Shown here piece by piece: positions 2 through 29,111 of a stretch of DNA of 37,454 nucleotides (position 1 is its first letter; every line of letters starts with the position of its first letter). The stretch is from Gemmatimonadota bacterium (GTDB taxonomy: Bacteria > Gemmatimonadota > Gemmatimonadetes > Gemmatimonadales > GWC2-71-9), in the NCBI GenBank assembly GCA_003221825.1, contig QHUE01000091.1:1-37454 (forward strand). Direction: 5' to 3'. The position numbers and the translations under genes were made by a program. The notes beneath the pieces were generated by a model. The model saw only the letters and a program-made list of their open reading frames with translations. It made no database searches and was not told the DNA's origin.

Positions 2-664
2 TCCACCCCTCAGGTACGGAAGCTCTTTATTCGCAGGCTATTAGCTTGGTATAAGAGGAAGGGCCGCGAACTTCCATGGCGGGAGACCCGCAACCCGTAT
101 GCCATCCTCGTCTCCGAGTTCATGCTCCAGCAGACGCAGGTCAGCCGCGTGCTGGACTATTTCCCGCGCTTCCTGGCGCGGTTTCCGACGATCGACGCGC
201 TTGCTCGCGCGCGACCCAAGGCTGTCATGGAGGAGTGGGACGGGCTCGGCTATTACGCACGCGCGCGCAATCTGCATAAGCTCGCGCGCGAGGTTACACG
301 TCGGCATGACGGCACGTTGCCCGACGACCCTGAGGACCTGCGGACACTCCCCGGTGTCGGCCGGTACACAGCCGGTGCGGTGGCGTGCTTCGCGTATGAA
401 AAGCCGGTGCCAACGGTCGACACGAACGTGAAACGAGTCCTCCAGAGGGTGTTCGCTGCGCGTGATGTCTGGGATTTTGCGACGACGTTGACGCCCAAAA
501 ACGGCAAGCGCGCCTGGAAACTCAATCAAGCGATGATGGAGCTTGGCGCGTTGGTTTGCACGGCGCGCAGCCCGAAGTGCCCAGAGTGTCCCGTCAAAAG
601 TGATTGCCTAGCAGTTCGCTCAATGACCCGAATTCGTAGCCGGCGGACCGTGCGTCCTGGATGA
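2..664 (+). CDS. mutY: MutY-type adenine DNA glycosylase, catalytic HhH-GPD/FeS domain only (5' end cut by window edge)
   Basis: The frame of the 122..664 ORF stays open back to nt 2 (..YKRKGRELPWRETRNPYAILVSEFMLQQTQV). MutY-like signatures are WDGLGYYARARNL, the HhH LPGVGRYTAGAV, VDTNVKRV, and the FeS loop Cys-x6-Cys-x2-Cys-x5-Cys (CTARSPKCPECPVKSDC). The ORF stops 16 codons after the last Cys, so there is no C-terminal NUDIX-like domain. Confidence 0.8.
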   Translation, partial: STPQVRKLFIRRLLAWYKRKGRELPWRETRNPYAILVSEFMLQQTQVSRVLDYFPRFLARFPTIDALARARPKAVMEEWDGLGYYARARNLHKLAREVTRRHDGTLPDDPEDLRTLPGVGRYTAGAVACFAYEKPVPTVDTNVKRVLQRVFAARDVWDFATTLTPKNGKRAWKLNQAMMELGALVCTARSPKCPECPVKSDCLAVRSMTRIRSRRTVRPG

Positions 665-1238
665 TGCCGGGCAGGGCGTTGGCGGTCTGCATCCGGTCGC
701 CCTCGGGATCATATCCATCCCCATCGTGCAGCAAGACGATCGCACCCGGTCGCAGCCTCTTCCGCACTCGTCTCCTGATCTCTTCGACTCCTGGTTTGGC
801 GGTGTCGAACACGCCGAATGTCCAACCGAATACCGTATAGGCGAGCTCTCGCGCGGCGGCGCGCAGGTATGGGCTCCGATATCCGTGGGGCGCGCGAAAC
901 GCTCGCGGCCGCTGGCCCGTCGCCCACCCGATCGCGGTGTGCGCCACCTCGAGCTGATGCCGCAGTCGCTGCCGGCTCGCAAAGTGCAGCTTCACATGGT
1001 TGTGCGTGTGGTTGCCGACCAAGTGGCCGGCGCCGGCCACGCGACGCGCAAGCTGGGGATAGCGCCGCACGTGATCCCCGACCATGAAGAACGAGGCGGG
1101 CACGCGCTCGCGCTCGAGCGTCTCGAGGATCGCGTCCGTCGCCCACTCGTTCGGGCCGTCGTCGAACGTGAGATAGATCCGCTGCTTCCTCGGCCCGCGC
1201 TCGACCGAGGGCCCGAAGAACAGATCCATCCCCATCAT
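594..1238 (-). CDS. Polysaccharide deacetylase (NodB homology domain), 214 aa
   Basis: NodB motifs TFDDGP, GNHTHNH, RAPHGY and LLHDGDG. The chosen ATG at 1238 (MMGMDLFF) overlaps the upstream stop as ATGA. The longer 349-aa ORF has an Arg/Ala-rich N-terminus lying inside the GT gene, so it was not used. Confidence 0.85.
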   Translation of the reverse strand: MMGMDLFFGPSVERGPRKQRIYLTFDDGPNEWATDAILETLERERVPASFFMVGDHVRRYPQLARRVAGAGHLVGNHTHNHVKLHFASRQRLRHQLEVAHTAIGWATGQRPRAFRAPHGYRSPYLRAAARELAYTVFGWTFGVFDTAKPGVEEIRRRVRKRLRPGAIVLLHDGDGYDPEGDRMQTANALPGIIQDARSAGYEFGSLSELLGNHF

Positions 1239-2359
1239 CCCGTCACCCGCCTGTAGACTGCCAGCACCCGCTGCGCCACGAGTGGCCACGCATGGCGCTC
1301 GGCGATGCGCCGTCCCTCCTGCGCCATCGTCCCGCGTCGGTCGGTATCGTCGATCAAGGCATTGACCGCGCGCGCCCAGGCATCGGCGTCGCCCGGCGGC
1401 ACGAACATGGCGTGCGACTGCCCGGCAACATCGCGGAAGGCCGGAATATCCGAGACGACCAGCGGCGTACCGCACGCCATCGCCTCGAGCAGCGTCACAC
1501 CAAAGGAGGCGCGCTTCGTGGGACAGACGTACACGTCGGCGCCGCGGTAGTAATCGGGCCGGTCGCCATTGGCATAGCCTGCGAAGTGCACGCTCGGGCC
1601 CAGCCCCCCCCGCCGGGCGGCCCGCTCCATCCGCGCGCGCCACGGTCCGTCACCGACGACGGTCAGCTTGGCAGCCGGATGGCGCTCGAGAATGCTTGGC
1701 ATCGCCGCAAGCACGGTCCCGAGATCGTTGCGCGGCTCGATGCGTCCGAGCCACAGCAGCTGCGGCGGGCGCTGCTCGAAGCGTCCACTTGCCCGGCCCA
1801 GCCCTGGCCGGAAGAACGTCGTGTCGACGCCGTTGGGAATGACTTCCCAGGGCGCCGTGAGGTAGCGGGCCATCGCTTCCTGGGCGGCGCTGCTGACCGC
1901 GATCGTGGCCGCGTGGCGATCGAGCAGCCGCTGGAACGGCCGGCGCAGGATGCGCAGGGCGATCGAGCGGGGGAACCAGGTGTGAAACGTGGCGACGACC
2001 GGAATGCCTGCCCGCACGGCCGCGCGCGGCGCAACGATCCCGAGCGTGGGATTCAAGCCGCCGTGCACATGCACGATGTCGAAGCGCTCCTTGCGGAACA
2101 GCGCCTCGAGCCGCGCGGTGAGTCGCCAGCCGACGGTAATCCGCGCCACGCCGCCGTTCGCATAGATCACCAGACTCGTCCCTACTCTGCGCACGTGCGG
2201 GGGATCGACGTCACCATTCATGCGCATGTGAGAGGTCACGATCGTCGCATGATGGCCGAGGGCGTCCAACTCCCGGGCGAGATGATGCACGTGCTCGGGT
2301 ACGCCACCGAGCTGCGGGTAGTAGTCCTCCGCGATGAGCGCGACCCGCAGCGGCGTCAT
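1235..2359 (-). CDS. GT4-family (GT-B, retaining) glycosyltransferase, PimA-like, 374 aa
   Basis: N-terminus MTPLRVALIAEDYYPQLGGVPEHVHHLAREL. C-terminal region YYRGADVYVCPTKRASFGVTLLEAMACGTPLVVSDIPAFRDV. It is colinear by eye with mycobacterial PimA. ATG 2359 overlaps the upstream TGA (ATGA). Confidence 0.85.
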   Translation of the reverse strand: MTPLRVALIAEDYYPQLGGVPEHVHHLARELDALGHHATIVTSHMRMNGDVDPPHVRRVGTSLVIYANGGVARITVGWRLTARLEALFRKERFDIVHVHGGLNPTLGIVAPRAAVRAGIPVVATFHTWFPRSIALRILRRPFQRLLDRHAATIAVSSAAQEAMARYLTAPWEVIPNGVDTTFFRPGLGRASGRFEQRPPQLLWLGRIEPRNDLGTVLAAMPSILERHPAAKLTVVGDGPWRARMERAARRGGLGPSVHFAGYANGDRPDYYRGADVYVCPTKRASFGVTLLEAMACGTPLVVSDIPAFRDVAGQSHAMFVPPGDADAWARAVNALIDDTDRRGTMAQEGRRIAERHAWPLVAQRVLAVYRRVTG

Positions 2360-3201
2360 CGCGCCCGCTGCTCCAGTCGCTCGACGGCGGAGACGACGGC
2401 GGCGGGCCGCTCTTCCTGGAGGTAATGCCCCGCGCCCGTCTGGCTGTCCACCTCGAACGACACGATGGAGTGATTCATGAGAGCGACCTCTTGTGGCGGC
2501 ACGTCGCCGTCGTGGTGGGCCGTGCCCACGACGAGCGTGACCGGACACGCGATGTCGCCCAGACGGGGGCCGAGCTTGGTCGGCTCGTGCGCCTGCGACA
2601 TCGCGAGAAAGGTCTTGAGCGTCGCGTCGAAGTTACGCGCCTCCCCGAGGGTGTAGCCCATGACCACGCCGTCGGTCACCCACGATCGGTCGCCCGAGGA
2701 ATCGAGCAGCATGCTGCGGACCTTGCGGCGCACCAGGTTGATTCCGCCGAGCAGCTTGACCCAGGGCAGATAGCGCATGGCGCTCCGGAACGTCGGCGTC
2801 GTTGCCTCTTCCGTGGGCCCGCCCTCGAGCGAGACGATGCCGCGCACCAGGTCGGGCCTATCGACCGCGAGCCGAAACGCGATCGCCGCACCGAGTGAGT
2901 GCGCGAGCACCAGCACCGGTCCCGCGTGCAGCGAATCGAGCACAGCGGCCAGACGATGCGCTTGCGCGGCGAGGGAGTAGTCGGCCTTCAGCGGCCGGCT
3001 CGAGAAGCCGGTGCCGAGCGGCTCGATGACGATCGGGCGAAACCCTTGAGCCGCGAGGAGCGGCACGACCTTCCGGAACGTGAAGGACGCGCCGAACAGG
3101 CCCGGGATGACGGCGACCGGTTTGCCGGTGCCGGCCCATGCCTCGACATGCATCGTCTCTGCCGGCGCCACGACGACGTACGGATGTTGCATGGCCAGCA
3201 T
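2356..3201 (-). CDS. Alpha/beta-fold hydrolase, 281 aa
   Basis: Oxyanion-type IPGLFG, nucleophile elbow LAHSLGAAIA, and C-terminal GAGHYLQEERP. ATG 3201 ([10 protein letters not shown]) shares 1 nt with the upstream TAA. The 448-aa ORF-track version is an Arg-rich extension over the upstream gene. Confidence 0.8.
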   Translation of the reverse strand: MLAMQHPYVVVAPAETMHVEAWAGTGKPVAVIPGLFGASFTFRKVVPLLAAQGFRPIVIEPLGTGFSSRPLKADYSLAAQAHRLAAVLDSLHAGPVLVLAHSLGAAIAFRLAVDRPDLVRGIVSLEGGPTEEATTPTFRSAMRYLPWVKLLGGINLVRRKVRSMLLDSSGDRSWVTDGVVMGYTLGEARNFDATLKTFLAMSQAHEPTKLGPRLGDIACPVTLVVGTAHHDGDVPPQEVALMNHSIVSFEVDSQTGAGHYLQEERPAAVVSAVERLEQRAR

Positions 3202-3806
3202 TACGGCGTCCCGAGGCGGGCGGCGCGCGAGGCGACGGTGTTCAGGTCGCCGCCCAGCGCATCCATATCGCGTTGAAAGCGGCAGTCGATGACGAGCAGG
3301 CCGACGACATAAGCGGCGAGATTCACGATGAAGATGATCGAGAAGATCAGGTGATACGGCGCCCAAATCCCGAAGTACAGCGCGAAGCGCTTCACTCCGG
3401 GATCGAGCTTCGAGCGGTCCACGATCGTCGTGAGCAGCAGTACGGCGACCGACGCGAGCACCGCCAGCCGCAGCGAAACGAGCCCGCCCACCGCGCACCC
3501 CAAGAAGATGGCGATCTCCGACGCGCGATCGAGCCACGTGTCGAGCCGGTGGCCGGCCGCGGAGACGAGGCCAAACTGGCGCGCGATGCCGCCGTCGAGA
3601 GCGTCGAGGAGTTGCCCGACGGCCATGAGCACCAGCCCCGGGACGACCCGACCCGTCGCGAATACGGCGGCGGCGGCCGCGCTCACCCAAAACGCGGCCC
3701 ACGTCACCTGATCGGGCGAGAGCCCGAGGGTGACGTGCATGAATCGCAGCACCGGGCGAATGCCGCGGTCTACAGCGGAACCAAGAACAGGAGCAAATTC
3801 ATACAT
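3201..3806 (-). CDS. CDP-alcohol phosphatidyltransferase (small, PI-phosphate/PgsA-like size), 201 aa
   Basis: The full family motif D-x2-D-G-x2-A-R-x8-G-x3-D-x3-D is present in [28 protein letters not shown]. Several TM segments. The start at ATG 3806 overlaps the preceding gene by 37 nt. An alternative ATG is at 3740. Confidence 0.8.
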
Positions 3807-4207
3807 AAGAGGACCACGATGAGAATGGCTTCCTTCGCTTTATCGGACACTCCGACCAAAAACCCCTGCGTGACGAGCGGCGAGTAGGGATACCACGGCA
3901 TCTTTTCGTAGCCGACGCTGTAATCCATCGCCAGGTGAATAAGAAAGAACAGCGCGGGCACCCACGTCCCGAGGAAAAAGCACAGCGGCACGATCCACAA
4001 CAGTGCGACAGGCTCCTGCAGTGACGTCCGCCAGTAATAACCGAGCTGCCTCCGGCGGCCAATCGCGCGCAGGTAAAAGGGGGCTTTGATCGCGTGATCG
4101 ATATCCACGCCGACGCCGAATACGTAGGCGAGCACGGCGTCGCTCCCCGTAAGCTTCAGGACTCGTACGCCGAGGGTGGTCGCGAGCGCGTGGGTGACGA
4201 TCGTCAT
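3770..4207 (-). CDS. Small integral membrane protein, possibly DUF457/YdjM-like metal-dependent hydrolase, 145 aa
   Basis: [14 protein letters not shown].. and VDIDH resemble DUF457 His/Asp motifs. About 4 hydrophobic segments. ATG 4207 overlaps the upstream TGA (ATGA). GC content is locally much lower than the flanks. Confidence 0.45.
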
Positions 4208-5229
4208 TCTGAACGGGCGGCAGGGGCGGTAGGGGCGGCAATGGGTCGCGGCGCTCCTACGGCCCAGATCAGCAGCAGCCCCGCCGCGATCCACGCGAAG
4301 TCGCGCACGCGACCGACGATCGACGTGTACAGACCGAGCTGGGGATCGAGCCCGAAGAGCTTGAAGAGGAGATAGTACGCACCCTCCCGGGCGCCAATCT
4401 CGAACGGCACCAGGAACAGGACGTTGCCCGCAATCGCCTCGAGCCCACCGATGGTAAAGGCAAGCAGGTAGCTGAGCCCGAACCCCAGGCTGGCGACGAT
4501 GAGCACCAGCTCGAGCATGAAGATGCAGCGGCTCAGATACTCGAGCAGGATCGCCTGGACAAAACGACCCGGCTGGCGGTGATAGAACTCCGTGATCTGC
4601 TCATCCAGCTCGACGAGCAGCGCGCGCTTGGGCTCGAGCGCGCCGCCCAGCCGGCGCAGGAGCGGGACCCGATTCAGCCAATTCAGGATCCGCTCGAGCA
4701 CGCCGCTGCGGTGGGCCGACACGAACAGCGCGATGATGCCGACGAGCACCAGCGCCACGACACCCAGGCTGGCGAACACCGCCGTCGGCGTCTCGCGCGG
4801 CAATAACGCAAACGCGAGACCGACCGCCGTGAACCAGACGAGTACGTAGGTGAACGAATGCAGCATGCGATGCAGGATCACGGAGCCGGCGGCGCGTCGT
4901 TTCCCGAGCCACGGCGCGAGCGCCGCGACCCGAAACGGCTCACCGCCGGCGTTGATCAACGGCGTGAGAAAGTTCAGCGCGCCGGCGGAGATCAGCACGG
5001 CGTAGGTGCGCCAGAACGACGGCCGGTTGGAGTCTCCCATCGTCAGCTGCCAGGCGAGCGCGCTACAGGCGTATACGAGCGCGTACAACAACACGATCGG
5101 GATGAACATCCAGCCCGTACGTGTAGCATCGGACACGAGCCGGCCGACGCCGATGCGTGCGATGAGATAGCCGAACACGGCCGCGCCGAGCAGAAACAAG
5201 GCAAGCTGCAACCGCCGGGGCGAGCTCAT
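4204..5229 (-). CDS. UPF0104 / lysyl-phosphatidylglycerol-synthase-TM-region-like (flippase-like) membrane protein, 341 aa
   Basis: Polytopic (about 8 TM segments). Family-like segments are NAGGEPFRV and LVPFEIGAREGAYYLLF. ATG 5229 overlaps the upstream TGA. Confidence 0.65.
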   Translation of the reverse strand: MSSPRRLQLALFLLGAAVFGYLIARIGVGRLVSDATRTGWMFIPIVLLYALVYACSALAWQLTMGDSNRPSFWRTYAVLISAGALNFLTPLINAGGEPFRVAALAPWLGKRRAAGSVILHRMLHSFTYVLVWFTAVGLAFALLPRETPTAVFASLGVVALVLVGIIALFVSAHRSGVLERILNWLNRVPLLRRLGGALEPKRALLVELDEQITEFYHRQPGRFVQAILLEYLSRCIFMLELVLIVASLGFGLSYLLAFTIGGLEAIAGNVLFLVPFEIGAREGAYYLLFKLFGLDPQLGLYTSIVGRVRDFAWIAAGLLLIWAVGAPRPIAAPTAPAARSE

Positions 5230-6227
5230 GCAACTGCAGCATACGAGGCCTCGAGCACCGCCGCGACCTGGGCGATATCGGCCATCGGGCGGGCGCGGTC
5301 ACCCGAATCGAGCGTGGTCGCGAAATCGTGAAACAGCCCGGCAAACCAGGTCGCGTACGCGGACTTGTCGAGATCGGCGGTATGGTCGAACGACTCCATC
5401 TGGCCGCCCTGCTCGAGCGTCAGGATGCCGCCGCTCCAGGTGATACTGCCGCGCTCGCCGATAAACCGGATCTCCGTCTCCCGTCGCCGCGCCGCCCAGG
5501 TGAGAAACATCGTCGCCATTCGATCGGGATACGAGAACACCAGCTGCGCCGTGTCTTCGACGTCGTAGCCGCCGTGGCGCAGGCGACCGGTCCACGCGCG
5601 CACCGCTTGCGGCGGCCCCGCGACGTCGAGGAGCTCGTAGACGAGGTGGGTACCGTGATCGAGGAGCACGCCGCCACGCCCGGCGGCGCGCCGGCCCCGC
5701 CACGGGACGTCGTCCCTGCCGGCGCCGGGATCGGCCGCGAGCCGATAGACCCGGAACTCCGCGAGATGCCAGCGGCCGATCACACCTTCGTCCAGCCAGC
5801 GTTTCACGCGCAGCCACACCGGATTGAAGCGGTACTGGTGACAGGGCATCACGACGCGACCCGCCTCGTGCGCCGCCGCGGCCAGGGTCGCGGCCTCGGC
5901 GCGGTTCACCGCCACCGGCTTCTCGCACAGGACGTGGTAGCCCTGCGACAGGCCCCAGAGCGATAGCTCCAGGTGCGATGCCGTCGGCGTGCAGATGTCC
6001 ACGAAGTCGATCGGACCGAGGTCGGCGAGCTGCTCGGGACGGGATAATAGAGGAATGCCGAGGAACGTCGACGGCGCCGACATCGCTTCCTCCACGATGC
6101 CGACGATGCGCAGCCGGGAGGCCACCTTCGGATCCGACTGGAACGCAGGGAGATGCCCGGAGCGCGCGATCCCGCCGAGCCCGAGCAGGACACCGCGATA
6201 GACCCGGGCGTCAGGCGAGCTGTGCAT
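5226..6227 (-). CDS. Gfo/Idh/MocA-family NAD(P)-dependent oxidoreductase, 333 aa
   Basis: N-terminal Rossmann segment VLLGLGGIARSGHLPAF, the conserved LCEKPVA (EKP) motif, and a C-terminal alpha/beta domain. Confidence 0.8.
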   Translation of the reverse strand: MHSSPDARVYRGVLLGLGGIARSGHLPAFQSDPKVASRLRIVGIVEEAMSAPSTFLGIPLLSRPEQLADLGPIDFVDICTPTASHLELSLWGLSQGYHVLCEKPVAVNRAEAATLAAAAHEAGRVVMPCHQYRFNPVWLRVKRWLDEGVIGRWHLAEFRVYRLAADPGAGRDDVPWRGRRAAGRGGVLLDHGTHLVYELLDVAGPPQAVRAWTGRLRHGGYDVEDTAQLVFSYPDRMATMFLTWAARRRETEIRFIGERGSITWSGGILTLEQGGQMESFDHTADLDKSAYATWFAGLFHDFATTLDSGDRARPMADIAQVAAVLEASYAAVA

Positions 6228-7062
6228 GGAATTTTGGCTCGCGCTCGTGCGCCAGAATGAGGAAGATCAGCACGACGTTCAGCGGCCCCACGACGATCCA
6301 GCAATAGGCGGCCGGCCAGTGCGGCACGGCGGTGAGGGCCAGGAGCAGGAAGCGAATGTTCTGCGCGATCCAGGCGCAGCCCCGCACCACCCAGCGCTGC
6401 CGCTCGGCCCATGAGCGGCGCAGCGACTCCGGCACATCGCGTCCCGACAGCGAGCGCGCGAGGGCCGTCGTGCGCGGGAACAGCCAGGCCTGGCGCCGGG
6501 TGTAGTCGCCGTAGATCCAGGAGGTGATCCGCTCCCAGATCGATTCCGCTCCGCGGATCTCCGCCGGCTCGGCAACGTCCAGCTCGCCGCCTGCACCGAT
6601 CGCGAAATGCAGATACGCCTGGCGGATGAAATCGGCCGCGGCGGCCTGGTAGGAGTGCGACAACAGCGCCGCAATCGCCAGCGCCGGCCCTTCCCAACCC
6701 CACCCGGCGGCATACAGCCGCGCCGCGAGGTGCCCGTACAGACTGATGAAGCGGCCGCTATCGGCCAGGCCATCGAGGATTCTGCCCATGCGGGTGGACG
6801 TGCCGCGCAGGCGCGCGAGCTGCCCGTCCACGCTGTCCAAGACATCGGAGGCGATGAAGAGCAGCACGCCGGCGGCGTTGACCCACGCGGTGCGGTACCA
6901 GAACAGGTGACCCGCGACGACCCCGAGCACGAGGCTCGCGAGCGTCACCGCATCAGGAGAGATCCGCGTCGGCAGCAGGGCCTTCGCAATGCGCCACCCG
7001 ACCGGCCTGAAGAACCGCCGGTCGGCCCATTCTTCGACGACGGGCCCTTTACTGGCGTACAC
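6211..7062 (-). CDS. CDP-alcohol phosphatidyltransferase, long form with C-terminal membrane extension, 283 aa
   Basis: Family motif in DSVDGQLARLRGTSTRMGRILDGLAD (D-x2-D-G-x2-A-R-x8-G-x3-D-x3-D). N-terminus RFFRPVGWRIAKALLPTRISPDAVTLASL. GTG start at 7062, overlapping the upstream gene by 14 nt. Confidence 0.8.
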   Translation of the reverse strand: MYASKGPVVEEWADRRFFRPVGWRIAKALLPTRISPDAVTLASLVLGVVAGHLFWYRTAWVNAAGVLLFIASDVLDSVDGQLARLRGTSTRMGRILDGLADSGRFISLYGHLAARLYAAGWGWEGPALAIAALLSHSYQAAAADFIRQAYLHFAIGAGGELDVAEPAEIRGAESIWERITSWIYGDYTRRQAWLFPRTTALARSLSGRDVPESLRRSWAERQRWVVRGCAWIAQNIRFLLLALTAVPHWPAAYCWIVVGPLNVVLIFLILAHEREPKFHAQLA

Positions 7063-8368
7063 GCGCGCTCGCTTCTTCGAGCACTGCCTTCATGGTGGCG
7101 AGCGCTTCCATCGCCTGCTCGTCGGTGATGACGAGCGGCGGGTTGATCCGTACTTCGGGGTTGTAAATCATCGCGATCACGCCGCGCGCGAGCAACGTGT
7201 CGAAGACCCAACGCGTGATCTTCTTGTCGAGCAGCTTGCGTGTCCCGGGCACGACCAGATCCATGCCGAGCATGAGCCCGCGGCCGCGCACGTCGCTGAC
7301 GATGGGGATCTCGTCTTCCCAAGAGCGCATCTCCTCGAGCATCAACGCTCCTGTTCGACGACTGTGTTCGACGAGTTGTTCTTCTACGATTGTTTGTATT
7401 GTCACGTGCGCCGCGGCCGCCGCGAGCGGGTTGCCGCCGTAGCTCGACGAGCTGCCGCTCGGATTCGCCCACGGCTTGGAGAACGCGATCGGCTCGCGAA
7501 TCACGATGCCGCTGACGGGGAAGCCGCCGCCGAACCCCTTGCCGACGAGCAGCACGTCGGGCACGACGTTGTCGTGCTCCACGGCAAACATTTTTCCCGT
7601 CCGCCCGAAGCCGGTGATCATCTCGTCGCAGATGAGCAGCGCGCCGATTTCCGTGGCGAGGGCCCGCAGCTCCCGCAGGTAGCCGGGGGGCGGGATGACG
7701 TTGCCGGCCGTCCCCTGCACCGGCTCGACGATGATCGCGGCGATGTCGTTCGTCGTCTCGAGCGCGATCTTGGACCGCACGAAATCGACGCAGTGCCACT
7801 CGCACGACGGGAACGTCTTGCCGAACGCGCAGCGCGCGCAGGCGGCGTACGGAGTCGAGTAGTTGCCGGGAGCCAGCGGCCCGAGGCCGTGCTTGAAGCT
7901 GCCCGACAAGAGCGGCAGGACTCCACCCGTCTTGCCGTGGAATCCGCCCCAGAATCCCATCATTTCGTGCCGGCCCGTGGCGGCTTTCGCGAGCCGCACC
8001 GCCGCTTCGACCGCCTCCGCACCGCTCGAGTAGAGCTGCGTGCGGTTCAAGTCGCCGGGCGCGAGCCCCGCGATCAGTTTCACCAGCGCCGCGCGATGCT
8101 CCGACGTGAAGCTCCCCACGTGCACGCGCTCCAGCTGCCGCGTCATCTCGGCGACGTAGCGCGGATGCGCATAGCCGAGGCTCGCGACGCCGACGCCGGC
8201 GAGCAGATCCACGTAGCGATTGCCGTCTATGTCCCACAGTACGGCGCCCTCGCCGCGATCCATGCACAGCTTGCTGAAGAGGGCGACGCTCTGCGTGCCC
8301 GGTGCGAGATACTGCGCCTCGAGCTCGAAGATGCGCTGCGATTCTGATTGGGTGACGAGATCGATCAT
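7049..8368 (-). CDS. Class-III (omega/acetylornithine-type) PLP aminotransferase, 439 aa
   Basis: SSGAEAVEAAVRLAK, IVEPVQGTAGNV, ICDEMITGFGRTGKMFA, and PDVLLVGKGFGGGFP (Schiff-base Lys region). ATG 8368 overlaps the upstream TGA. Confidence 0.85.
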   Translation of the reverse strand: MIDLVTQSESQRIFELEAQYLAPGTQSVALFSKLCMDRGEGAVLWDIDGNRYVDLLAGVGVASLGYAHPRYVAEMTRQLERVHVGSFTSEHRAALVKLIAGLAPGDLNRTQLYSSGAEAVEAAVRLAKAATGRHEMMGFWGGFHGKTGGVLPLLSGSFKHGLGPLAPGNYSTPYAACARCAFGKTFPSCEWHCVDFVRSKIALETTNDIAAIIVEPVQGTAGNVIPPPGYLRELRALATEIGALLICDEMITGFGRTGKMFAVEHDNVVPDVLLVGKGFGGGFPVSGIVIREPIAFSKPWANPSGSSSSYGGNPLAAAAAHVTIQTIVEEQLVEHSRRTGALMLEEMRSWEDEIPIVSDVRGRGLMLGMDLVVPGTRKLLDKKITRWVFDTLLARGVIAMIYNPEVRINPPLVITDEQAMEALATMKAVLEEASARVRQ

Positions 8369-9198
8369 GCCTGTCTTCCGTTTGCGGCCTTTTCGTCGAT
8401 ATAGCCGGCGATCGCCTCCGCAGCAGCGGCGCGCACCGGGGCAAAAGAGGGCCAGTCGTTGAGATCGATGAGCACCGGCGTGTCGGGCTCAGGGAACGCG
8501 ACGTCGCCGCCGAACACCTCGAGCCCGACGGCGCGTGCCGCGGCGAATACAAGCTCCTTCAGGCGTTCTTCCGAGATGTCGACACGGCCTGGATCGGCGG
8601 CATACCACGAGAAGAAGCGCCCGTCGGCGAGGGCGTAGAACTTCACGATCGGCCCGCCGACGTGCGCCTGGAGCGCGACGCGCGCCACGCCGCGCCGGGC
8701 GAACCCGGCGATCGCGTCCGTCACGCCCGCTTCCTTCGCCGATACGACGTCGGCGCTCGTTTCGGCGTGCACGTCGCCGCGCTTCACCCACACCGGCCGG
8801 CCGTCGCCGTTCAATTGATGCACGAGCGGCAGCACCGCCTGTGGCTCGGCGGTCGCCACGATCAGCGTGCGCGGGAACGGCAGCCCGGCCGCCGCCATCC
8901 GTCCGACCAACCGGTGCCGGTGACAGTTGAGGACGCTGTCCGGGGGATTGACGGCCAGCGCTTCCGGTGGCACGAGGTCGAGCAGGCGTTCCGATGCCGC
9001 AGGGCCCTGGCACATGTTCACGTACAGCTCCGCCGCCGGCAGGCGACCCGCGGCGACGTCGGCCTCACCCGTGCGCGTGACCCGCCAACCGCGCCGCTCC
9101 AGCCCGGAGATGGTGTCATCCAGGATCGCCGTGTCATTGCTGCGATGCTGGGCCGGCGAGTACGTCGGGCTCCGATAGAGTGCGACCAGGCGCTTCAT
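8365..9198 (-). CDS. ATP-grasp-fold protein (RimK / inositol-phosphate-kinase-like), 277 aa
   Basis: Pattern match by eye only: RPVWVKRGDVHAE, LQAHVGGPIVKFYALADGRFF, and FGGDVAF...PVLIDLNDWPSF (like the xIDxNxFPxx end of ATP-grasp domains). ATG 9198 (MKRLVALY) overlaps the upstream TGA. Confidence 0.55.
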   Translation of the reverse strand: MKRLVALYRSPTYSPAQHRSNDTAILDDTISGLERRGWRVTRTGEADVAAGRLPAAELYVNMCQGPAASERLLDLVPPEALAVNPPDSVLNCHRHRLVGRMAAAGLPFPRTLIVATAEPQAVLPLVHQLNGDGRPVWVKRGDVHAETSADVVSAKEAGVTDAIAGFARRGVARVALQAHVGGPIVKFYALADGRFFSWYAADPGRVDISEERLKELVFAAARAVGLEVFGGDVAFPEPDTPVLIDLNDWPSFAPVRAAAAEAIAGYIDEKAANGRQA

Positions 9199-9911
9199 CG
9201 TGCCGCCCCTCCCTGCGGTGCGCTGGCCGCGAGCCAACGCTCCGCGGCCTCGAGATCGCGCTTGTGATCGAGATCGATGATCTTCGCCACCTCTACTGTC
9301 GTGATCGGCGCGCGCACGGCGATGAGCAGCTTGAGGAATGCACGCATCCGGTTCTCCGACGTCACGGCCACGCTGGCGAGCCGGCGCGCGCCCGGACTGA
9401 ATCCGTAGACGCCACCCGTCACCACGACGGGAGCCGTGCCGTTGCGAGGGCTGTCGGCGATTTCAATGGCACGCCCCGCGGCGTCGCGCGCGACGTACAC
9501 CGGCCGCTCGTCATCCACAAACGGCGTTACAGCCAGCACCGCAAATGACCCGGCGCGAAGTTGCTCCGTCACACCGGCATAGACGAGTCGCCAGTCCTCG
9601 GCCGGCATCACCGTATCGACCATCGTGCAGAACACCGGACCCGGCGGCACCACCGCCAGACCCGCCACCAGCGTATGCAGCGAGGAGGGCGTGCGGCAGG
9701 CGCGCACGGTGACGGCCGGAGACGGGGGCTGAACGAGTACGCCCTCGCGCACCATGCTCGTAATCGATTCGCAGCCGAGCTGCTCGAGGATCTGAATCAG
9801 GTTGAGGATCTGCGGCCGGCCGGCCACGGACACTAGCGCCTTCGGCGTCGCCACGCCGTCGGCGGCGAGGCGGCTGCCGTCGCCGCCGGCGAGGATGAGT
9901 CCGTGCGTCAC
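9195..9911 (-). CDS. Nucleotidyltransferase (sugar/alcohol-phosphate cytidylyl- or nucleotidylyl-transferase), 238 aa
   Basis: The N-terminal loop HGLILAGGDGSRL...TPKALVSVAGRP is typical of NTP_transferase/MobA-like enzymes. GTG 9911 overlaps the upstream TGA (GTGA). The longer ORF-track N-terminus is Arg-rich and lies inside the HAD gene. Confidence 0.7.
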   Translation of the reverse strand: MTHGLILAGGDGSRLAADGVATPKALVSVAGRPQILNLIQILEQLGCESITSMVREGVLVQPPSPAVTVRACRTPSSLHTLVAGLAVVPPGPVFCTMVDTVMPAEDWRLVYAGVTEQLRAGSFAVLAVTPFVDDERPVYVARDAAGRAIEIADSPRNGTAPVVVTGGVYGFSPGARRLASVAVTSENRMRAFLKLLIAVRAPITTVEVAKIIDLDHKRDLEAAERWLAASAPQGGAAR

Positions 9912-10591
9912 GACGGCAGCACCTCGGCGAGCTCGGTCAACGTGGTGAGCCGCACCGTCGGCACGTTGGCATCGGGCGAGCGCGCGACCGGTGGCGCGAG
10001 CCACGCGGTCTGCATCCCGAGACTCGCCGCCGGCCTGATGTCGGCTTCGAAGTTGTCTCCGACCATCCATACCGGCTCCCCGTTAACACCGCCGCCGAGC
10101 GACTCGAGCGCGTGGCGGAACAGCCGCGGGTCCGGCTTGGTGGCGCCGACTCGGCCCGAGTCCGCGACCGCGGAGAAGTAGCTCATCAAATCCAGTTCCT
10201 CAAGGCAGGGCACCAAATTGCCAGTAAAATTCGACACTACCGCGAGCCGGTACGACCGCTGCAACCTCGCGAGCAGCGCCTGATTGCGGCGAATCACTGC
10301 GACGGCGTGGGCGTGGAAATCCTCCACGATCCGCTCGCGTGACAGCGTGAGCCCATCCGGAAGACGCGCCAACACGAGCGCCGACTGCAGATCGACCATG
10401 GCGCGAAATCCGAGTGATCCGATCCCCGGCACCCGGAGGAGCGCGCGGTCGGACGCGCGAAACGCGTCCTCGAAAACCGCGAACGGCTCGCGCCCGCCCG
10501 CCGCCGTGTAGCCCGCGTGGAACCGCACACTCCAACGCGCGCCATCGGCGTCGAGCGTGCCGCCGAAATCGAACAGCACCACACCGCGCAC
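9908..10591 (-). CDS. HAD-superfamily hydrolase, variant motif I (D-x-G instead of D-x-D), 227 aa
   Basis: Motif I LFDFGGTLD, motif II VVSNFT, motif III Lys in GATKPDP, motif IV MVGDNFEADI. GTG start at 10591. First gene after a 136-nt gap. Confidence 0.8.
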   Translation of the reverse strand: MRGVVLFDFGGTLDADGARWSVRFHAGYTAAGGREPFAVFEDAFRASDRALLRVPGIGSLGFRAMVDLQSALVLARLPDGLTLSRERIVEDFHAHAVAVIRRNQALLARLQRSYRLAVVSNFTGNLVPCLEELDLMSYFSAVADSGRVGATKPDPRLFRHALESLGGGVNGEPVWMVGDNFEADIRPAASLGMQTAWLAPPVARSPDANVPTVRLTTLTELAEVLPS

Positions 10592-10603: not shown

Positions 10604-10619
10604 GGCAAGAGCGGTACCG
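10604..10619 (-). promoter_or_regulatory. Candidate sigma-54 (-24/-12) promoter
   Basis: The minus strand reads cGGTACcgctcTTGCc. This is GG-N10-GC with the TTGC -12 element (consensus TGGCAC-N5-TTGCW). It lies 13 nt upstream of the HAD GTG and directly downstream of a sigma-54 enhancer-binding-protein gene. The implied 5' UTR is only a few nt. Confidence 0.35.
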
Positions 10620-10727: not shown

Positions 10728-12111
<1,384 letters not shown>

Positions 12112-12119
<8 letters not shown>

Positions 12120-14334: not shown

Positions 14335-14387
14335 TCCGACAACGACCCGCAAATCGGTGGGATGGTCACCCTGAAACGTTGGACCAC

Positions 14388-14840
14388 CTACCTGAACAGC
14401 GTACCCGATATGAGAGCCATAAGTGCGAGAACCCCTGCAACGGTCGCAAAGACGGCCTGCCGCCTGCGCAATCCACTGAAACTCTCCGGCAGCTCGCCCC
14501 GGGGGTCGAGCTCCAGCCTGCTGAGCCGTGCCGCGGTCGGCATGACGACCCAGATCGCCACGATGGCACCGAGGAGTCCTAATCCCTGCATCGCCATGAG
14601 CCAGGTTGGAACGGTCGCGCTCTTGAAGTATGGCACTGACAGCACGAAGCCGCTCACCACCACGAGGACGGCACCGGGCCCGATCAGATTCCGGGACACT
14701 ACACTCATGACGCGGTATACCGCCAGCCGCTGATCGGGGGGGAAGTACTTGGCGGTGATGCCGCTGAGCATCACGGCGAGCCCGCCGCCCAGCCAGGCGA
14801 CGAACCCCATGACATGGAGGAAGAGCCACACGCCTTTCAT
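14388..14840 (-). CDS. Integral membrane protein (4 TM, DUF2269-like), 150 aa
   Basis: MKGVWLFLHVMGFVAWLGGGLAVMLSG.. with four hydrophobic segments. ATG 14840 overlaps the upstream TGA (ATGA). Confidence 0.6.
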   Translation of the reverse strand: MKGVWLFLHVMGFVAWLGGGLAVMLSGITAKYFPPDQRLAVYRVMSVVSRNLIGPGAVLVVVSGFVLSVPYFKSATVPTWLMAMQGLGLLGAIVAIWVVMPTAARLSRLELDPRGELPESFSGLRRRQAVFATVAGVLALMALISGTLFR

Positions 14841-22447: not shown

Positions 22448-22529
22448 CGGCCGAAACGGTCGCTCCGAACTGCGAGAGTTGCTAGAGGCTCAGGCGGAAC
22501 TCATTGAGACACATGGGTATCTAGGTGCC

Positions 22530-24755: not shown

Positions 24756-25480
24756 GGCGCGACGCACCTCCCCCCCTGCCACACGATGCATGGGCTTACT
24801 TCTTTGATCTCGACGGGACGTTGCTCGACTTCACGGATCCGCCAGGTGCCGTCCGTATCGACGACGCGTTGCGCGCGCAGATCGCCCGCCTCCACGACAG
24901 GACGGGAGGCGCCGTGGCATTGATCAGTGGCCGCGCGCTCGCCGACATCGATGACCTGCTCGACGGCGTCCGTCTCCCGGTGGCGGGCCAGCACGGCACC
25001 GAGCGGCGCGACGCCCGCGGCCGCGTCTCGCATCACGACTTTCCGCACGCGCGTCTGGACTGGGCACACGCGCGCCTGGCGGAGGCGATCGCCGGCCGGG
25101 CCGGATTGCTGCTCGAACACAAGGGACTGTCGCTCGCCCTCCATTACCGCCGCGCGCCGCGCCTCGGCGGGTACGCGCACCGACTCGTCGGATCGCTGGC
25201 GCCCACCCTCGGCGCCGAATTCTGCATCCAGCCCGGGAAGCGGATCGTCGAAGTGAAGCCCGCCGGGAAGGACAAGGGCGTCGCCTTGGTGGAGTTCATG
25301 GCCGAGGAGCCCTTTCGCGGGCGCACGCCGGTCTTCGTCGGAGACGACCTCACGGACGAGTACGGCTTCGAGGCCGTGAACCGCCTGAGCGGCCACTCGA
25401 TCAAAGTGGGGGCGGGCCGCACGGTCGCCCGCTGGCGCCTGCCGCACGTGCGCGCGGTGCGGGAGTGGCTGGCATCGTGA
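24752..25480 (+). CDS. otsB: Trehalose-6-phosphate phosphatase (HAD-IIB), 242 aa
   Basis: YFFDLDGTLLDF (D-x-D), ALISGR, KDKG and VFVGDDLTDE. GTG 24752 overlaps the otsA TGA (GTGA). Confidence 0.85.
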   Translation: MRRDAPPPLPHDAWAYFFDLDGTLLDFTDPPGAVRIDDALRAQIARLHDRTGGAVALISGRALADIDDLLDGVRLPVAGQHGTERRDARGRVSHHDFPHARLDWAHARLAEAIAGRAGLLLEHKGLSLALHYRRAPRLGGYAHRLVGSLAPTLGAEFCIQPGKRIVEVKPAGKDKGVALVEFMAEEPFRGRTPVFVGDDLTDEYGFEAVNRLSGHSIKVGAGRTVARWRLPHVRAVREWLAS

Positions 25481-27273: not shown

Positions 27274-27417
27274 AAAAAGCGGGGACATGCAAAAGCTAGT
27301 CCACAGACGCACCGCGGGCTTCAGGCAATGGTTAACGGGACCACCCTAGCAAGGATTGTCCCGTTGACTCAAGACGGTTCACCGCTGCTGCGTCTGTGGC
27401 CTAGTCGTTGCATGTCC
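27274..27417. repeat. MITE-like imperfect palindromic element, copy 1 (~135-nt core)
   Basis: The termini GGGGACATGCAAAAGCTAG ... CTAGTCGTTGCATGTCC are inverted repeats. Internal arms share CCACAGACGCA/TGCGTCTGTGG and AACGGGAC/GTCCCGTT. It is related to the reverse complement of copy 2. Confidence 0.7.
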
Positions 27418-29106: not shown

Positions 29107-29111
29107 GTTTG

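Follow-up and report, generated by a model that had tools for sequence, protein, structure and literature searches.

Gene organization of the locus

Twelve minus-strand genes of a soil Gemmatimonadales bacterium lie between positions 594 and 10591 of the analyzed window (i.e. the whole stretch of 37,454 nucleotides), where they form a real operon. These genes and the features upstream of them are:

Gene 1, 9908–10591, minus strand: HAD-IA family protein with atypical motif I (Pfam Hydrolase/HAD_2)
Gene 2, 9195–9911, minus strand: MobA-like nucleotidyltransferase (Pfam NTP_transf_3, 40.9 bits)
Gene 3, 8365–9198, minus strand: ATP-grasp enzyme of an unnamed family (profile against PDB, fold)
Gene 4, 7049–8368, minus strand: class-III (omega-type) aminotransferase (Pfam Aminotran_3, 306.6 bits)
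Gene 5, 6211–7062, minus strand: core CDP-alcohol phosphotransferase, 283 aa (Pfam, motif)
Gene 6, 5226–6227, minus strand: Gfo/Idh/MocA NAD(P) oxidoreductase (Pfam, three domains)
Gene 7, 4204–5229, minus strand: MprF-flippase-domain-like membrane protein (Pfam LPG_synthase_TM, 88.1 bits)
Gene 8, 3770–4207, minus strand: small integral membrane protein (conserved across 21 aligned loci)
Gene 9, 3201–3806, minus strand: second CDP-alcohol phosphotransferase, 201 aa, PIP-synthase-like (Pfam, complete catalytic motif)
Gene 10, 2356–3201, minus strand: alpha/beta-fold hydrolase (Pfam Abhydrolase_1/6)
Gene 11, 1235–2359, minus strand: PimA-like GT4 glycosyltransferase (Pfam)
Gene 12, 594–1238, minus strand: NodB-type (CE4) de-N-acetylase (Pfam Polysacc_deac_1, 115.7 bits)
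Promoter, 10605–10618, minus strand: sigma-54-type element GGTAC-N5-TTGC, 11–24 nt upstream of gene 1
Regulator, 10728–12119, minus strand: NtrC-type sigma-54-dependent response regulator, immediately upstream (Pfam Response_reg, Sigma54_activat, HTH_8)
Kinase, 12112–13638, minus strand: sensor histidine kinase (dCache-like, HAMP, HisKA, HATPase_c)
HAD paralogue, 13639–14326, minus strand: second HAD protein, also with DFGGTL, upstream of the kinase

The start and stop coordinates of the original prediction were reproduced for all 12 open reading frames, each in frame with a single terminal stop. Every junction was re-checked and abuts or overlaps as claimed: a GTGA overlap was found at 9908–9911, ATGA overlaps at 9195–9198, 8365–8368, 5226–5229, 4204–4207, 2356–2359, and 1235–1238, a 1-nt overlap at 3201, and longer overlaps of 14 nt (7049–7062), 17 nt (6211–6227), and 37 nt (3770–3806). 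In each chosen frame, GC content was 0.79–0.87 at third versus 0.38–0.52 at second positions, a contrast that constitutes a coding signature. Gene callers in public assemblies start gene 9 22 codons later (179 aa), resulting in a 29-nt gap; since homologues with 59–72% identity align from residue 1, the 201-aa start and its overlap with gene 8 are the better call.

Ten of the 12 proteins scored above Pfam gathering thresholds, in the families that had been forecast (HAD, NTP_transf_3, Aminotran_3, CDP-OH_P_transf twice, GFO_IDH_MocA, LPG_synthase_TM, Abhydrolase, Glycos_transf_1/GT4, and Polysacc_deac_1). NCBIfam equivalog-level cut-offs were reached by none of the operon proteins and were all missed by wide margins. 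The 37-kb window also contains genes for trehalose synthesis and degradation.

The promoter element falls within the 136 nt that separate gene 1 from the sigma-54 activator gene. Across loci, the same GG-N10-GC element precedes the HAD gene only where a sigma-54 response regulator adjoins (window/L001–L006, L008, L033, L041, and L042) and was not found in roughly 60 regulator-less loci. Its spacer bases differ between loci, and element and activator gene co-occur in five independent locus groups. The kinase and the HAD paralogue upstream read in one frame in this window.

Conservation of the cluster

The twelve genes had been regarded as one unit. Locus comparison showed that only seven of them are conserved across phyla, namely those encoding the HAD protein, nucleotidyltransferase, ATP-grasp enzyme, aminotransferase, CDP-OH transferase, Gfo/Idh/MocA dehydrogenase, and flippase-like protein. 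This core occurs in at least six phyla, with representatives in Gemmatimonadota, Verrucomicrobiota, Ignavibacteria, Myxococcota/Desulfobacterota, and Elusimicrobiota; cultured carriers include Syntrophobacter fumaroxidans MPOB and Desulfoferrobacter suflitae DRH4. Genes 8 and 9, for the small membrane protein and the second CDP-OH transferase, are found Gemmatimonadales-wide, and the hydrolase, GT4, and NodB genes (10–12) are restricted to the nearest relatives.

In Bacteroidota, the core is present without aminotransferase and dehydrogenase and adjoins the gene for myo-inositol-phosphate synthase (MIPS); the Bacteroides locus L067, for example, encodes nucleotidyltransferase, ATP-grasp enzyme, CDP-OH transferase, LPG_synthase_TM protein, HAD protein, and MIPS in one string. 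Overall, MIPS was located within 10 kb in 17 of the best 80 genome loci. In eight Ignavibacteria loci it is contiguous with aminotransferase and dehydrogenase, the full core standing in one operon; the order in the Ignavibacteria locus L053 is nucleotidyltransferase, ATP-grasp, aminotransferase, CDP-OH transferase, Gfo/Idh/MocA, HAD, MIPS. The Gemmatimonadales locus L017 carries a CDP-OH transferase and MIPS pair 5 kb from the cluster. No MIPS gene was found within the 37-kb window, nor within 10 kb in most loci of Verrucomicrobiota, Myxococcota, and Desulfobacterota, so that an inositol substrate in these three groups is an extrapolation.

Without aminotransferase and dehydrogenase, the core has the composition of the Bacteroides vulgatus-type 'alternative inositol lipid cluster' (Heaver et al. 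2022), and the earlier description of the pathway as undescribed does not hold to that extent. The published cluster is itself predicted, its function being unconfirmed, and species carrying it make phosphoinositol dihydroceramide (PMC9246714).

Protein families and catalytic motifs

Motif I of gene 1 reads DFGGTL, with Gly in place of Asp+2, and of the 77 HAD homologues compared, 73 have DxGGT[LI], with all phyla represented. Because the Asp+2 general acid/base is missing family-wide, a phosphatase role would be insecure. Gene 2 is a candidate CTP:(amino)inositol-phosphate cytidylyltransferase, its weak N-terminal NCBIfam matches including IPCT/DIPPS. Although gene 3 gave no Pfam match at E ≤ 0.01, its identity as an ATP-grasp enzyme was confirmed by the family profile against PDB (PsnB, 1.7e-7; ITPK4, 3.9e-6; RimK-like, 5.7e-5) and by the predicted fold (pLDDT 93.5; top Foldseek matches ArgX/LysX, PsnB, Ddl, and RimK, E about 1e-13). 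The family comprises about 850 clusters at 50% identity, with K139, K186, D232, D245, and N247 invariant. Its motif LIDxNDWPSF resembles the 'DLNylPSF' of ITPK, but this likeness is confined to the C-terminal third, whereas the fold is nearest to ligases (ArgX/LysX, Ddl, RimK).

The nucleotidyltransferase and ATP-grasp enzyme are fused in six or more independent clusters (50% identity), and HAD–nucleotidyltransferase–ATP-grasp (P0183) and ATP-grasp–HAD (P0269) fusions also occur, suggesting that the three soluble enzymes share one task. A CDP-OH transferase–HAD fusion has been reported in Prevotella veroralis (PMC9246714). The ATP-grasp enzyme had been proposed to form an amide on the amine made by the transaminase. 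All clusters without an aminotransferase nevertheless keep it, and it is repeatedly fused to nucleotidyltransferase and HAD, which points to a part in head-group activation.

The aminotransferase is the best-conserved core protein (47–93% identity between loci). Under a strict filter, it and the dehydrogenase were jointly present or absent in 46 of 48 well-flanked loci, the remaining two having partial aminotransferase matches. Both genes sit among the core genes, with translational overlaps to their neighbors. This is the classic oxidize-then-transaminate pair, gained or lost jointly, and supports in outline the predicted alcohol-to-amine conversion. The closest PDB entries of gene 4 are GABA and putrescine aminotransferases, and its family matches include PigE-type and putrescine-type enzymes; that its nearest solved relatives use omega-amines and aldehydes argues against an inosose substrate. 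The inosose aminotransferases known so far are DegT-family rather than class-III enzymes.

Both CDP-alcohol phosphotransferases have intact catalytic motifs and match solely inositol-type enzymes in PDB. In gene 5, the motif D-x2-DG-x2-AR...G-x3-D-x3-D is complete in the translation; its top PDB match is AF2299 (1.6e-8), followed by PIP synthases and IPCT/DIPPS, with no other enzyme classes at E ≤ 0.01. Gene 9 matches M. tuberculosis PgsA1 best in PDB (4.3e-6) and, far under cut-off, archaetidylinositol-phosphate and PIP synthases in NCBIfam. Directly upstream of it in every case is gene 8, for which there was no Pfam match even at E ≤ 10; it has only 755 homologues, for the most part in Gemmatimonadota, and invariant residues H6, D35, D37, H38, H91, D95, and E101 (21 loci). 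Gene 7, whose NCBIfam HpnL-like match (93 bits) is under cut-off, is present in 38 of 48 loci.

Among the tail genes, the hydrolase is limited to Gemmatimonadota (6 of 48 loci), and its position is sometimes shifted upstream of the cluster. Gene 11 aligns over its full length with PimA (2gej/4n9w; E 2e-42, residues 4–374 versus 21–385, 33% identity), far ahead of the PDB runner-up (1.6e-20). Gene 12 contains TFDDGP and HTHNH motifs, with no evident signal peptide; its NCBIfam PdaB/NodB-like match (about 140 bits) is under cut-off, and EPS-type families are among the weaker matches. Together with the MprF-like flippase, glycosyltransferase and deacetylase follow the logic of the amino-sugar lipid systems HexSDF (PMC10128005) and GpgSDF (PMC12713373), where it is experimentally established.

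Proposed pathway and alternatives

A soluble product is unlikely. In a compatible-solute pathway, nucleotidyltransferase and CDP-OH transferase would act like IPCT/DIPPS to yield a soluble phosphodiester that might be aminated (e.g. a glycero-phospho-inositol or di-inositol-phosphate analogue), with the HAD protein as final phosphatase and induction by osmotic or desiccation stress. The solved relatives of gene 5 (AF2299, IPCT/DIPPS), the weak IPCT/DIPPS match of gene 2, the presence of a HAD protein, the trehalose genes, and the sensor kinase with its sigma-54 switch would fit, but the HAD protein lacks the phosphatase general acid, a flippase-like protein belongs to the conserved core, the GT4 is most like the lipid-directed PimA, and related Bacteroidota species make inositol lipids. 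Moreover, the DIP-type solutes known so far come from hyperthermophiles, not from mesophilic soil bacteria. Similarly unlikely is a plain route to phosphatidylinositol and glycosylated PI, as in mycobacterial pgsA1–pimA, with dehydrogenase and aminotransferase serving elsewhere (e.g. in inositol epimerizing or for an amino sugar donor). It would agree with the spacing of genes 9 and 11 (two genes apart), the CDP-OH transferase and MIPS pair of L017, and the amine-free Bacteroidota version. Against it stand the embedding, translational overlap, and co-variation of the aminotransferase–dehydrogenase pair with the core over six phyla and the high conservation of the aminotransferase; class-III enzymes are also not the usual nucleotide-sugar aminotransferases.

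Even less probable is a transfer of CDP-activated (amino)cyclitol phosphate to polysaccharide, LPS, or lipid-linked glycan instead of bulk lipid. Inositol does occur in the B. thetaiotaomicron capsule, depending on MIPS (Heaver et al. 2022; PMC9246714). GT4 and NodB enzymes, which would belong to such a decoration, are common in exopolysaccharide loci but missing from almost all of the 48 loci, and Pfam annotation of the operon genes revealed no polymerase, Wzx/Wzy, or export genes. Phospho-alcohol decoration of glycans is normally carried out by LicD or TagF-type enzymes, not by CDP-OH_P_transf proteins. The N-glyceroyl-alkylamine phosphoglycolipid of Deinococcus-Thermus type, as originally suggested, is highly improbable. 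A fatty aldehyde would become an alkylamine, the ATP-grasp enzyme would form the N-glyceroyl amide, a CDP-OH transferase the phosphodiester, and GT4 and deacetylase would provide GlcNAc/GlcN. Class-III aminotransferases do turn aldehydes into primary amines, consistent with the PigE- and putrescine-type matches, and the ATP-grasp fold is ligase-like. Yet the ATP-grasp gene is kept in 8–10 loci without aminotransferase, its fusion partners are not lipid enzymes, the linked precursor gene is MIPS, and all positive evidence concerns inositol; the scheme needs neither nucleotidyltransferase nor Gfo/Idh/MocA enzyme, Pfam annotation of the operon genes showed no fatty-acyl reductase or glycerate-forming enzyme, and no Deinococcota were found among the best 80 genome loci or the named homologues.

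An inositol-based pathway is favored because of the MIPS linkage, the inositol-type CDP-OH transferases, and the PimA-like GT4, and we infer all its substrates and products. Myo-inositol phosphate would be supplied by a MIPS encoded elsewhere in the genome, oxidized by the Gfo/Idh/MocA dehydrogenase, and transaminated by the class-III enzyme to amino-deoxy-inositol (inosamine) phosphate. ATP-grasp enzyme, nucleotidyltransferase, and atypical HAD protein would ready and CMP-activate the head group in a Kennedy-type 'CDP-alcohol' route, in which the ATP-grasp enzyme most likely phosphorylates the cyclitol phosphate in an ITPK-like manner and the HAD protein may later strip the extra phosphate. 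The 283-aa phosphotransferase would then use a lipid alcohol of the membrane, diacylglycerol or ceramide, as acceptor for the phospho-head group, and the MprF-flippase-like protein would carry the product to the outer leaflet. As a Gemmatimonadales addition, the PIP-synthase-like transferase and its partner membrane protein may supply or extend an inositol phospholipid; the PimA-like GT4 would put a sugar, probably GlcNAc, on the cyclitol, and the cytoplasmic NodB deacetylase would free an amine on it.

This pathway retains, in outline, the original view of a phosphodiester head group made by a self-contained, non-textbook route, with family matches supporting the glycosylation and de-N-acetylation tail and the flippase-like protein; the twelve-gene unit, the full novelty, the ATP-grasp amide, and the N-glyceroyl-alkylamine are not supported. 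The searchable literature yielded no lipid bearing an inosamine head group, which is either novelty or a warning sign. Judged from sequence, we see about an even chance that the operon makes a so far undescribed inositol phospholipid carrying an amino modification and a sugar, by a CDP-activated route under a sigma-54 two-component switch. Histidine kinase and NtrC-type activator would switch expression of the operon through its sigma-54 promoter, and the end product would be a glycosyl-(amino)inositol phospholipid of cationic or zwitterionic character.

Operon structure and genomic setting

The twelve minus-strand open reading frames of the operon run from 10591 to 594, as originally predicted; all are in frame, and each has one terminal stop. 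The 11 junctions were likewise confirmed: seven are 4-nt ATGA/GTGA overlaps, one is an overlap of a single nucleotide, and the remaining three measure 14, 17, and 37 nt. Third-position GC was 0.79–0.87 in all twelve genes (G+C content of the window about 66%). The 5′ boundary is marked by a 136-nt gap, and the 3′ end is overlapped by a convergent endonuclease-III-like gene. In a profile-HMM check, ten of the proteins scored above the Pfam gathering thresholds for their predicted families. Public gene calls place the start of gene 9 later (179 aa); the overlapping upstream start (201 aa) was preferred, since homologues with 59–72% identity align from residue 1. The source is a soil-metagenome Gemmatimonadales genome, and identical proteins were found on 20 public contigs, with close homologues labelled Gemmatimonadales.

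Elsewhere in the window, a trehalose block (22224–29170) encodes an OtsA-like GT20 protein, an OtsB trehalose-phosphatase, a GH15 trehalase-like protein, and a GH37 trehalase, with an amino-acid permease and an SSF transporter nearby; it is a possible osmotic or desiccation-stress neighborhood for the lipid operon. On the plus strand, two overlapping open reading frames at 32666–34489 (CarboxypepD_reg and Plug) and 34413–35747 (beta-barrel) together represent one SusC-like TonB-dependent receptor, likely interrupted by a frameshift or sequencing error; a SusD-family gene follows at 35762–37360.

Conservation across genomes

All twelve proteins were compared with 80 loci found via the ATP-grasp family (the best 80 of at least 595). 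Per-gene counts rest on the 48 loci with full flanks.

Occurrence of the genes of the operon in the 48 loci with full flanks
HAD protein (gene 1): 47 of 48
Nucleotidyltransferase (gene 2): 44 of 48
CDP-OH transferase of the 283-aa type (gene 5): 41 of 48
Gfo/Idh/MocA dehydrogenase (gene 6): 40 of 48
Class-III aminotransferase (gene 4): 38 of 48
Flippase-like protein (gene 7): 38 of 48
Pair of gene 8 (small membrane protein) and gene 9 (second CDP-OH transferase): 14 of 48
Alpha/beta hydrolase (gene 10): 6 of 48
GT4 glycosyltransferase (gene 11): 3 of 48
NodB deacetylase (gene 12): 2 of 48

Given these counts, the operon is best described as nested, and the idea that its twelve genes form one unit was not supported by the neighborhood comparison. 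The core of genes 1–7 was found in Gemmatimonadota, Verrucomicrobiota, Ignavibacteria, Myxococcota/Desulfobacterota, and Elusimicrobiota, with the core genes on the same strand in nearly every locus. A lineage-level pair (genes 8 and 9) is added in Gemmatimonadales and one Ignavibacteriales locus, and genes 10–12 form a clade-specific tail. Aminotransferase and dehydrogenase were either both present or both absent; outside Bacteroidota, the pair occurred in most loci examined (38–40 of the 48 with full flanks). Cultured carriers include Syntrophobacter fumaroxidans MPOB and Desulfoferrobacter suflitae, and Melioribacter carries the version lacking the amine-forming genes.

At the S. fumaroxidans locus (L087; CP000478, 3606835–3627647), the core is bordered by two radical SAM genes, one of them for a B12-binding protein, and by an additional CDP-OH transferase (410 aa) on the opposite strand; these neighbors hint at a link to other lipid-modifying chemistry. 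Four loci bear unexpected host labels, namely Hyphomicrobiales (L040), Bifidobacterium (L047), Betaproteobacteria (L056), and [Ruminococcus] lactaris (L079). Their clusters look Gemmatimonadota-, Verrucomicrobiota-, or Bacteroidota-like, and the labels probably reflect mis-binning of metagenome-assembled genomes (MAGs) and not true hosts.

The ATP-grasp protein and its soluble partners

The third gene of the operon was assigned as follows:
8365–9198, minus strand, gene 3, ATP-grasp protein by profile and fold

Gene 3 had no Pfam match at E ≤ 0.01; at E ≤ 10 the best was ATPgrasp_ST (14.2 bits, cut-off 31.4). NCBIfam MptN reached 16 bits with a cut-off of 350, and a single-sequence search of the PDB returned noise only. 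The protein belongs to an unnamed family, which forms some 850 clusters when grouped at 50% identity and is present in at least 595 GTDB species genomes. A family profile built from 81 diverse members retrieved PsnB (E = 1.7e-7), ITPK4 (3.9e-6), a RimK-like protein (5.7e-5), and ITPK1 (1.4e-3) from the PDB. An AlphaFold model based on 72 diverse sequences (pLDDT 93.5, pTM 0.90) displayed the three-domain ATP-grasp fold; the diverse homologues were needed, as a shallow alignment (78–96% identity) gave a pLDDT of only 50.6. Top Foldseek matches of the model were ArgX/LysX, PsnB, Ddl, and RimK (E about 1e-13, TM 0.6–0.72). Residues K139, K186, D232, D245, and N247, corresponding to the ATP-binding lysines and the D-D-N metal (Mg) triad, are invariant across 72–81 diverse sequences, and the conserved residues align with the C-terminal motif of RimK, PsnB, and ITPK4. 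Profile, fold, and invariant residues thus bear out the ATP-grasp label of the original prediction.

The kind of reaction catalyzed is less clear-cut. The C-terminal motif LIDxNDWPSF resembles vDLNylPSF of inositol-phosphate kinases; the profile similarity to ITPK4 and ITPK1 is confined to the C-terminal third with this D-x-N...PSF motif, and ITPKs were absent from the top 50 structural matches. The modeled overall fold is ligase-like, and gene 3 could act as a ligase. An amide ligase acting on the amine made by the transaminase, as in the original prediction, was considered here along the lines of C. jejuni Cj1438. However, the gene is retained in all clusters that lack the aminotransferase and is found fused to activation enzymes, and we therefore dropped the amide ligase as the leading reading.

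Fusions of the nucleotidyltransferase and ATP-grasp proteins were detected in six independent clusters, and further independent clusters contained HAD–nucleotidyltransferase–ATP-grasp (802 aa) and ATP-grasp–HAD fusions. These fusions argue that genes 1–3 share one task, the simplest candidate being preparation and nucleotide activation of a soluble head group. In the gene 1 family, motif I is not DxDx[TV]: 73 of the 77 HAD homologues examined, from all phyla, carried DxGGT[LI], with Gly replacing the Asp+2 general acid/base throughout six phyla, while motifs II–IV are kept (SNF, KPDP, and GDNFEADI). Such a family-wide substitution is unusual among presumed phosphatases, and gene 1 may not be an ordinary one.

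CDP-OH transferases and modifying genes

Both CDP-OH transferases have complete catalytic motifs (gene 5, DSVDGQLAR-x8-GRILDGLAD; gene 9, DALDGGIAR-x8-GHRLDTWLD) and exceed the PF01066 cut-off of 22 bits (45.8 and 43.6 bits, respectively). In the PDB, they matched inositol-type enzymes only, i.e. AF2299, phosphatidylinositol-phosphate (PIP) synthases, and IPCT/DIPPS, with PgsA1 as best match of gene 9. Their closest NCBIfam models describe archaetidylinositol-phosphate and PIP synthases, but neither gene is a member: scores for NF045883 (cut-off 170) were 41.7 bits for gene 5 and 49 bits for gene 9, and those for NF040950 (cut-off 180) were 58.5 and 61.9 bits. Gene 9 is preceded by:
3770–4207, minus strand, gene 8, small membrane protein with invariant His/Asp/Glu

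Gene 8 matched nothing in Pfam even at E ≤ 10, and some of its homologues are labelled 'fatty acid hydroxylase superfamily' by JGI. Its TH...DxDH...H..DY pattern led us to consider a YdjM/DUF457-like membrane metal hydrolase, possibly a PIP phosphatase; given the Pfam result, this candidate was not retained.

For gene 11, the nearest PDB enzyme was PimA, a GDP-Man:PI alpha-mannosyltransferase (2gej/4n9w; E 2e-42, full-length alignment of residues 4–374 with 21–385, 33% identity), the second-best match having an E-value of 1.6e-20. Its donor would be an N-acetyl-hexosamine, judging from the downstream deacetylase, and its score for the GlcNAc-PG synthase model NF053787 was 65.6 bits (cut-off 480). 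By Pfam assignment, genes 11, 12, and 7 place a glycosyltransferase, a CE4 deacetylase, and an MprF-flippase-domain protein in one operon.

Link to inositol

A 'putative alternative inositol lipid cluster' has been described in Bacteroides (Phocaeicola) vulgatus and Prevotella, in which genes for an NTP transferase, a phosphatidyltransferase, a HAD protein, and a lysyl-PG-synthase-like neighbor lie beside the myo-inositol-phosphate synthase (MIPS) gene (Heaver et al. 2022, PMC9246714). Species with this cluster make phosphoinositol dihydroceramide, and the cluster has been suggested to encode a CDP-inositol route of the Kennedy type, with functions unconfirmed according to the authors (PMC9246714). 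Aminotransferase and dehydrogenase are missing from the Bacteroidota loci; in L067, the genes follow each other in the order TetR, nucleotidyltransferase, ATP-grasp, CDP-OH transferase, LPG_synthase_TM, HAD, myo-inositol-1-phosphate synthase. This locus, labelled 'uncultured Bacteroides sp.', was equated with the B. vulgatus cluster (BVU_RS13095/13105/13115) by its identical composition and the published description. Homologous strings were found in seven Bacteroidota loci (L067, L073, L074, L077, L080, L084, and L085), and genes 1, 2, 3, 5, and 7 are homologous to those of such loci (27–36% identity) in the same string; as in the B. vulgatus-type cluster, genes 2, 5, and 1 share one operon. 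That the cluster is wholly undescribed was accordingly not supported, since the core minus aminotransferase and dehydrogenase matches the published one (PMC9246714). Several differences were nevertheless evident. The published description makes no mention of an ATP-grasp gene (PMC9246714); it lies between the genes for NTP transferase and phosphatidyltransferase, in P. vulgatus predictably between BVU_RS13095 and BVU_RS13105. Further, the B. vulgatus-type cluster lacks the aminotransferase/dehydrogenase pair, the second CDP-OH transferase, the GT4 protein, and the deacetylase, all present in the window, whereas it adjoins MIPS, which the window's operon does not.

MIPS was not found within the 37-kb window. 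Among the 80 loci (the best 80 of at least 595), 17 had MIPS within 10 kb of the cluster. Eight Ignavibacteria loci carry MIPS in one string with aminotransferase and dehydrogenase; in L053, for instance, the order is nucleotidyltransferase, ATP-grasp, aminotransferase, CDP-OH transferase, dehydrogenase, HAD, MIPS. In a Gemmatimonadales MAG (L017, 19356–20817), a third CDP-OH transferase (226 aa) overlaps the MIPS start, 5 kb downstream of the cluster and past an opposite-strand GH3 gene; this is a classic PIP-synthase/MIPS pair.

Regulation

Directly upstream of the operon, the window contains, besides a dCache/HAMP histidine kinase gene, the following features:
10728–12119, NtrC-type sigma-54 activator, directly upstream of the operon
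10605–10618, GGTAC-N5-TTGC element (GG-N10-GC, −24/−12), 11–24 nt before gene 1

A GG-N10-GC element upstream of the HAD gene was detected only where a sigma-54 regulator adjoins (L008, L033, L041, and L042), with different spacer bases, and was absent in about 60 loci without such a regulator. Because element and activator co-occur across loci, the data support a putative sigma-54 promoter under two-component control in the window's lineage.

On the minus strand (12112–14829), a second HAD paralogue (DFGGTL) and a histidine kinase are joined in one 905-aa open reading frame. Five near-identical contigs (L002–L006) have one additional nucleotide and a stop, so that a 224-aa HAD protein and a 508-aa kinase are encoded separately, and contig L001 carries the same fused allele as the window; the fusion is either a genuine polymorphism or an artifact of a homopolymer or of the assembly. 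L001, otherwise identical, encodes at 4700–7900 a truncated response regulator (297 aa, without receiver domain), and some 380 nt are added in its nucleotidyltransferase region, which is called as two genes, neither with a Pfam match. L001 represents the same strain in a rearranged or chimeric assembly.

Comparison with known systems

The pairing of a nucleotidyltransferase with a CDP-alcohol phosphotransferase using a CDP-activated soluble alcohol, with a phosphatase acting last, is shared with IPCT/DIPPS (CTP:inositol-1-phosphate cytidylyltransferase/di-inositol-phosphate-phosphate synthase) and AF2299, to which gene 5 is most closely related among solved structures. Here, the activities reside in separate proteins, an ATP-grasp enzyme is added, the flippase-like protein is conserved, and the product is probably a lipid; scores for NCBIfam NF041135 (IPCT/DIPPS) were 22–37 bits with a cut-off of 580.

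As in mycobacterial PI/PIM synthesis with its PIP synthase PgsA1, PIP phosphatase, and PimA, a PIP-synthase-like gene (gene 9) and a PimA-like gene (gene 11) share one operon, although with scores far below equivalog level. Between them lies an alpha/beta hydrolase instead of the PatA acyltransferase, the deacetylase after the GT4 gene implies an N-acetyl-hexosamine instead of mannose, and the genes are combined with a CDP-alcohol activation module. In GPI synthesis, the GT4 enzyme PIG-A places GlcNAc on an inositol phospholipid, and PIG-L de-N-acetylates it to GlcN-PI, which is then flipped. The same three activities are represented by family in the operon, a likeness of logic alone; PIG-L is of the LmbE type and the deacetylase here of the NodB/CE4 type.

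Gfo/Idh/MocA dehydrogenases act before PLP aminotransferases to convert a ring C-OH into C-NH2 in the streptomycin (StrI/StsC), rhizopine, and kanosamine (NtdC/NtdA/NtdB) pathways, and kanosamine synthesis uses a phosphorylated substrate with a HAD phosphatase acting last. The aminotransferases of these pathways are of the DegT/DnrJ/EryC1 type, whereas gene 4 is class III, and what these pathways make are antibiotics or signals instead of head groups of lipids.

A glycosyltransferase, a polysaccharide-deacetylase-family enzyme, and an MprF-flippase-like protein produce cationic GlcN-type lipids in HexSDF of C. difficile (PMC10128005) and GpgSDF of P. aeruginosa (PMC12713373), the former under an adjacent two-component system (PMC10128005). 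The flipping, glycosylation, and de-N-acetylation proposed for genes 7, 11, and 12 would follow this tested logic. These two systems modify a glycolipid or PG, compared with the inositol-type lipid proposed here; their gene order is also different, and in the present operon the flippase-like gene is part of the core instead of the GT4/NodB tail.

Proposed pathway and its implications

The operon encodes a real, widely distributed pathway, probably for a lipid head group. That its product is a lipid derived from inositol seems to us an evenly balanced proposition. In such a pathway, gene 6 would oxidize an inositol phosphate and gene 4 transaminate it to an inosamine phosphate, which genes 3, 2, and 1 would process and activate with CMP. 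Gene 5 would transfer the phospho-head group to a lipid alcohol, and gene 7 would flip the product. In the extended operon, gene 9 with gene 8 may supply or extend a PI-type lipid, gene 11 may glycosylate the cyclitol, and gene 12 may de-N-acetylate the sugar. MIPS yields D-inositol-3-phosphate, while a Kennedy-type route to a D-1-linked head group requires a phosphate at the opposite position. Speculatively, the ATP-grasp protein could add this phosphate as a kinase, and the HAD protein could take off the first one, either ahead of the transfer to the lipid or following it.

An aminocyclitol product is predicted, though we place less confidence in the specific inosamine chemistry than in the inositol origin. 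Weak points of the proposed pathway are the absence of MIPS from the window, the DxGGT motif of the HAD protein, the ligase-like fold of the ATP-grasp protein, and the class-III aminotransferase, as known inosose aminotransferases are of the DegT type; moreover, no inosamine or aminocyclitol lipids were reported in the searchable literature. A serinol phosphate or aminopentanetetrol head group could be formed instead, but ranks below inosamine, since MIPS shares an operon with aminotransferase and dehydrogenase in Ignavibacteria. The N-glyceroyl-alkylamine type known from Deinococcus-Thermus, suggested in the original prediction, found no support, with no Deinococcota among the best 80 of at least 595 loci or the named homologues. 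The general picture of an amino-modified, glycosylated phosphodiester head group with a translocator survives; its alkylamine, amide, and single-unit elements were not supported.

Taken to its full extent, the proposal is tentative and rather doubtful in its entirety: the seven-gene core may produce an undescribed inosamine-phosphate phospholipid on diacylglycerol or ceramide via a Kennedy-type CDP-cyclitol route, with the new ATP-grasp family as cyclitol-phosphate kinase and the Asp+2-less HAD protein resetting the phosphate. Bacteria of soils and sediments, from at least six phyla, would commonly contain this lipid. In Gemmatimonadales, its extension would give a GlcN-(amino)inositol phospholipid, corresponding in bacteria to the GPI GlcN-PI core, under a sigma-54 two-component switch.

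Bacterial inositol lipids are considered rare, and to our knowledge proof is still lacking for the alternative pathway suggested in gut Bacteroidota; literature searches found neither follow-up characterization of the B. vulgatus cluster nor relevant Gemmatimonadetes polar lipids. The present analysis places that pathway as one branch of a much larger family and adds to it an overlooked ATP-grasp enzyme, fused to nucleotidyltransferase and HAD proteins. The prediction is directly testable in the cultured carriers. If true, abundant soil phyla such as Gemmatimonadota and Verrucomicrobiota would make an unrecognized amino-cyclitol lipid, with consequences for membrane charge, resistance to antimicrobial peptides and desiccation, and the interpretation of environmental intact-polar-lipid profiles.
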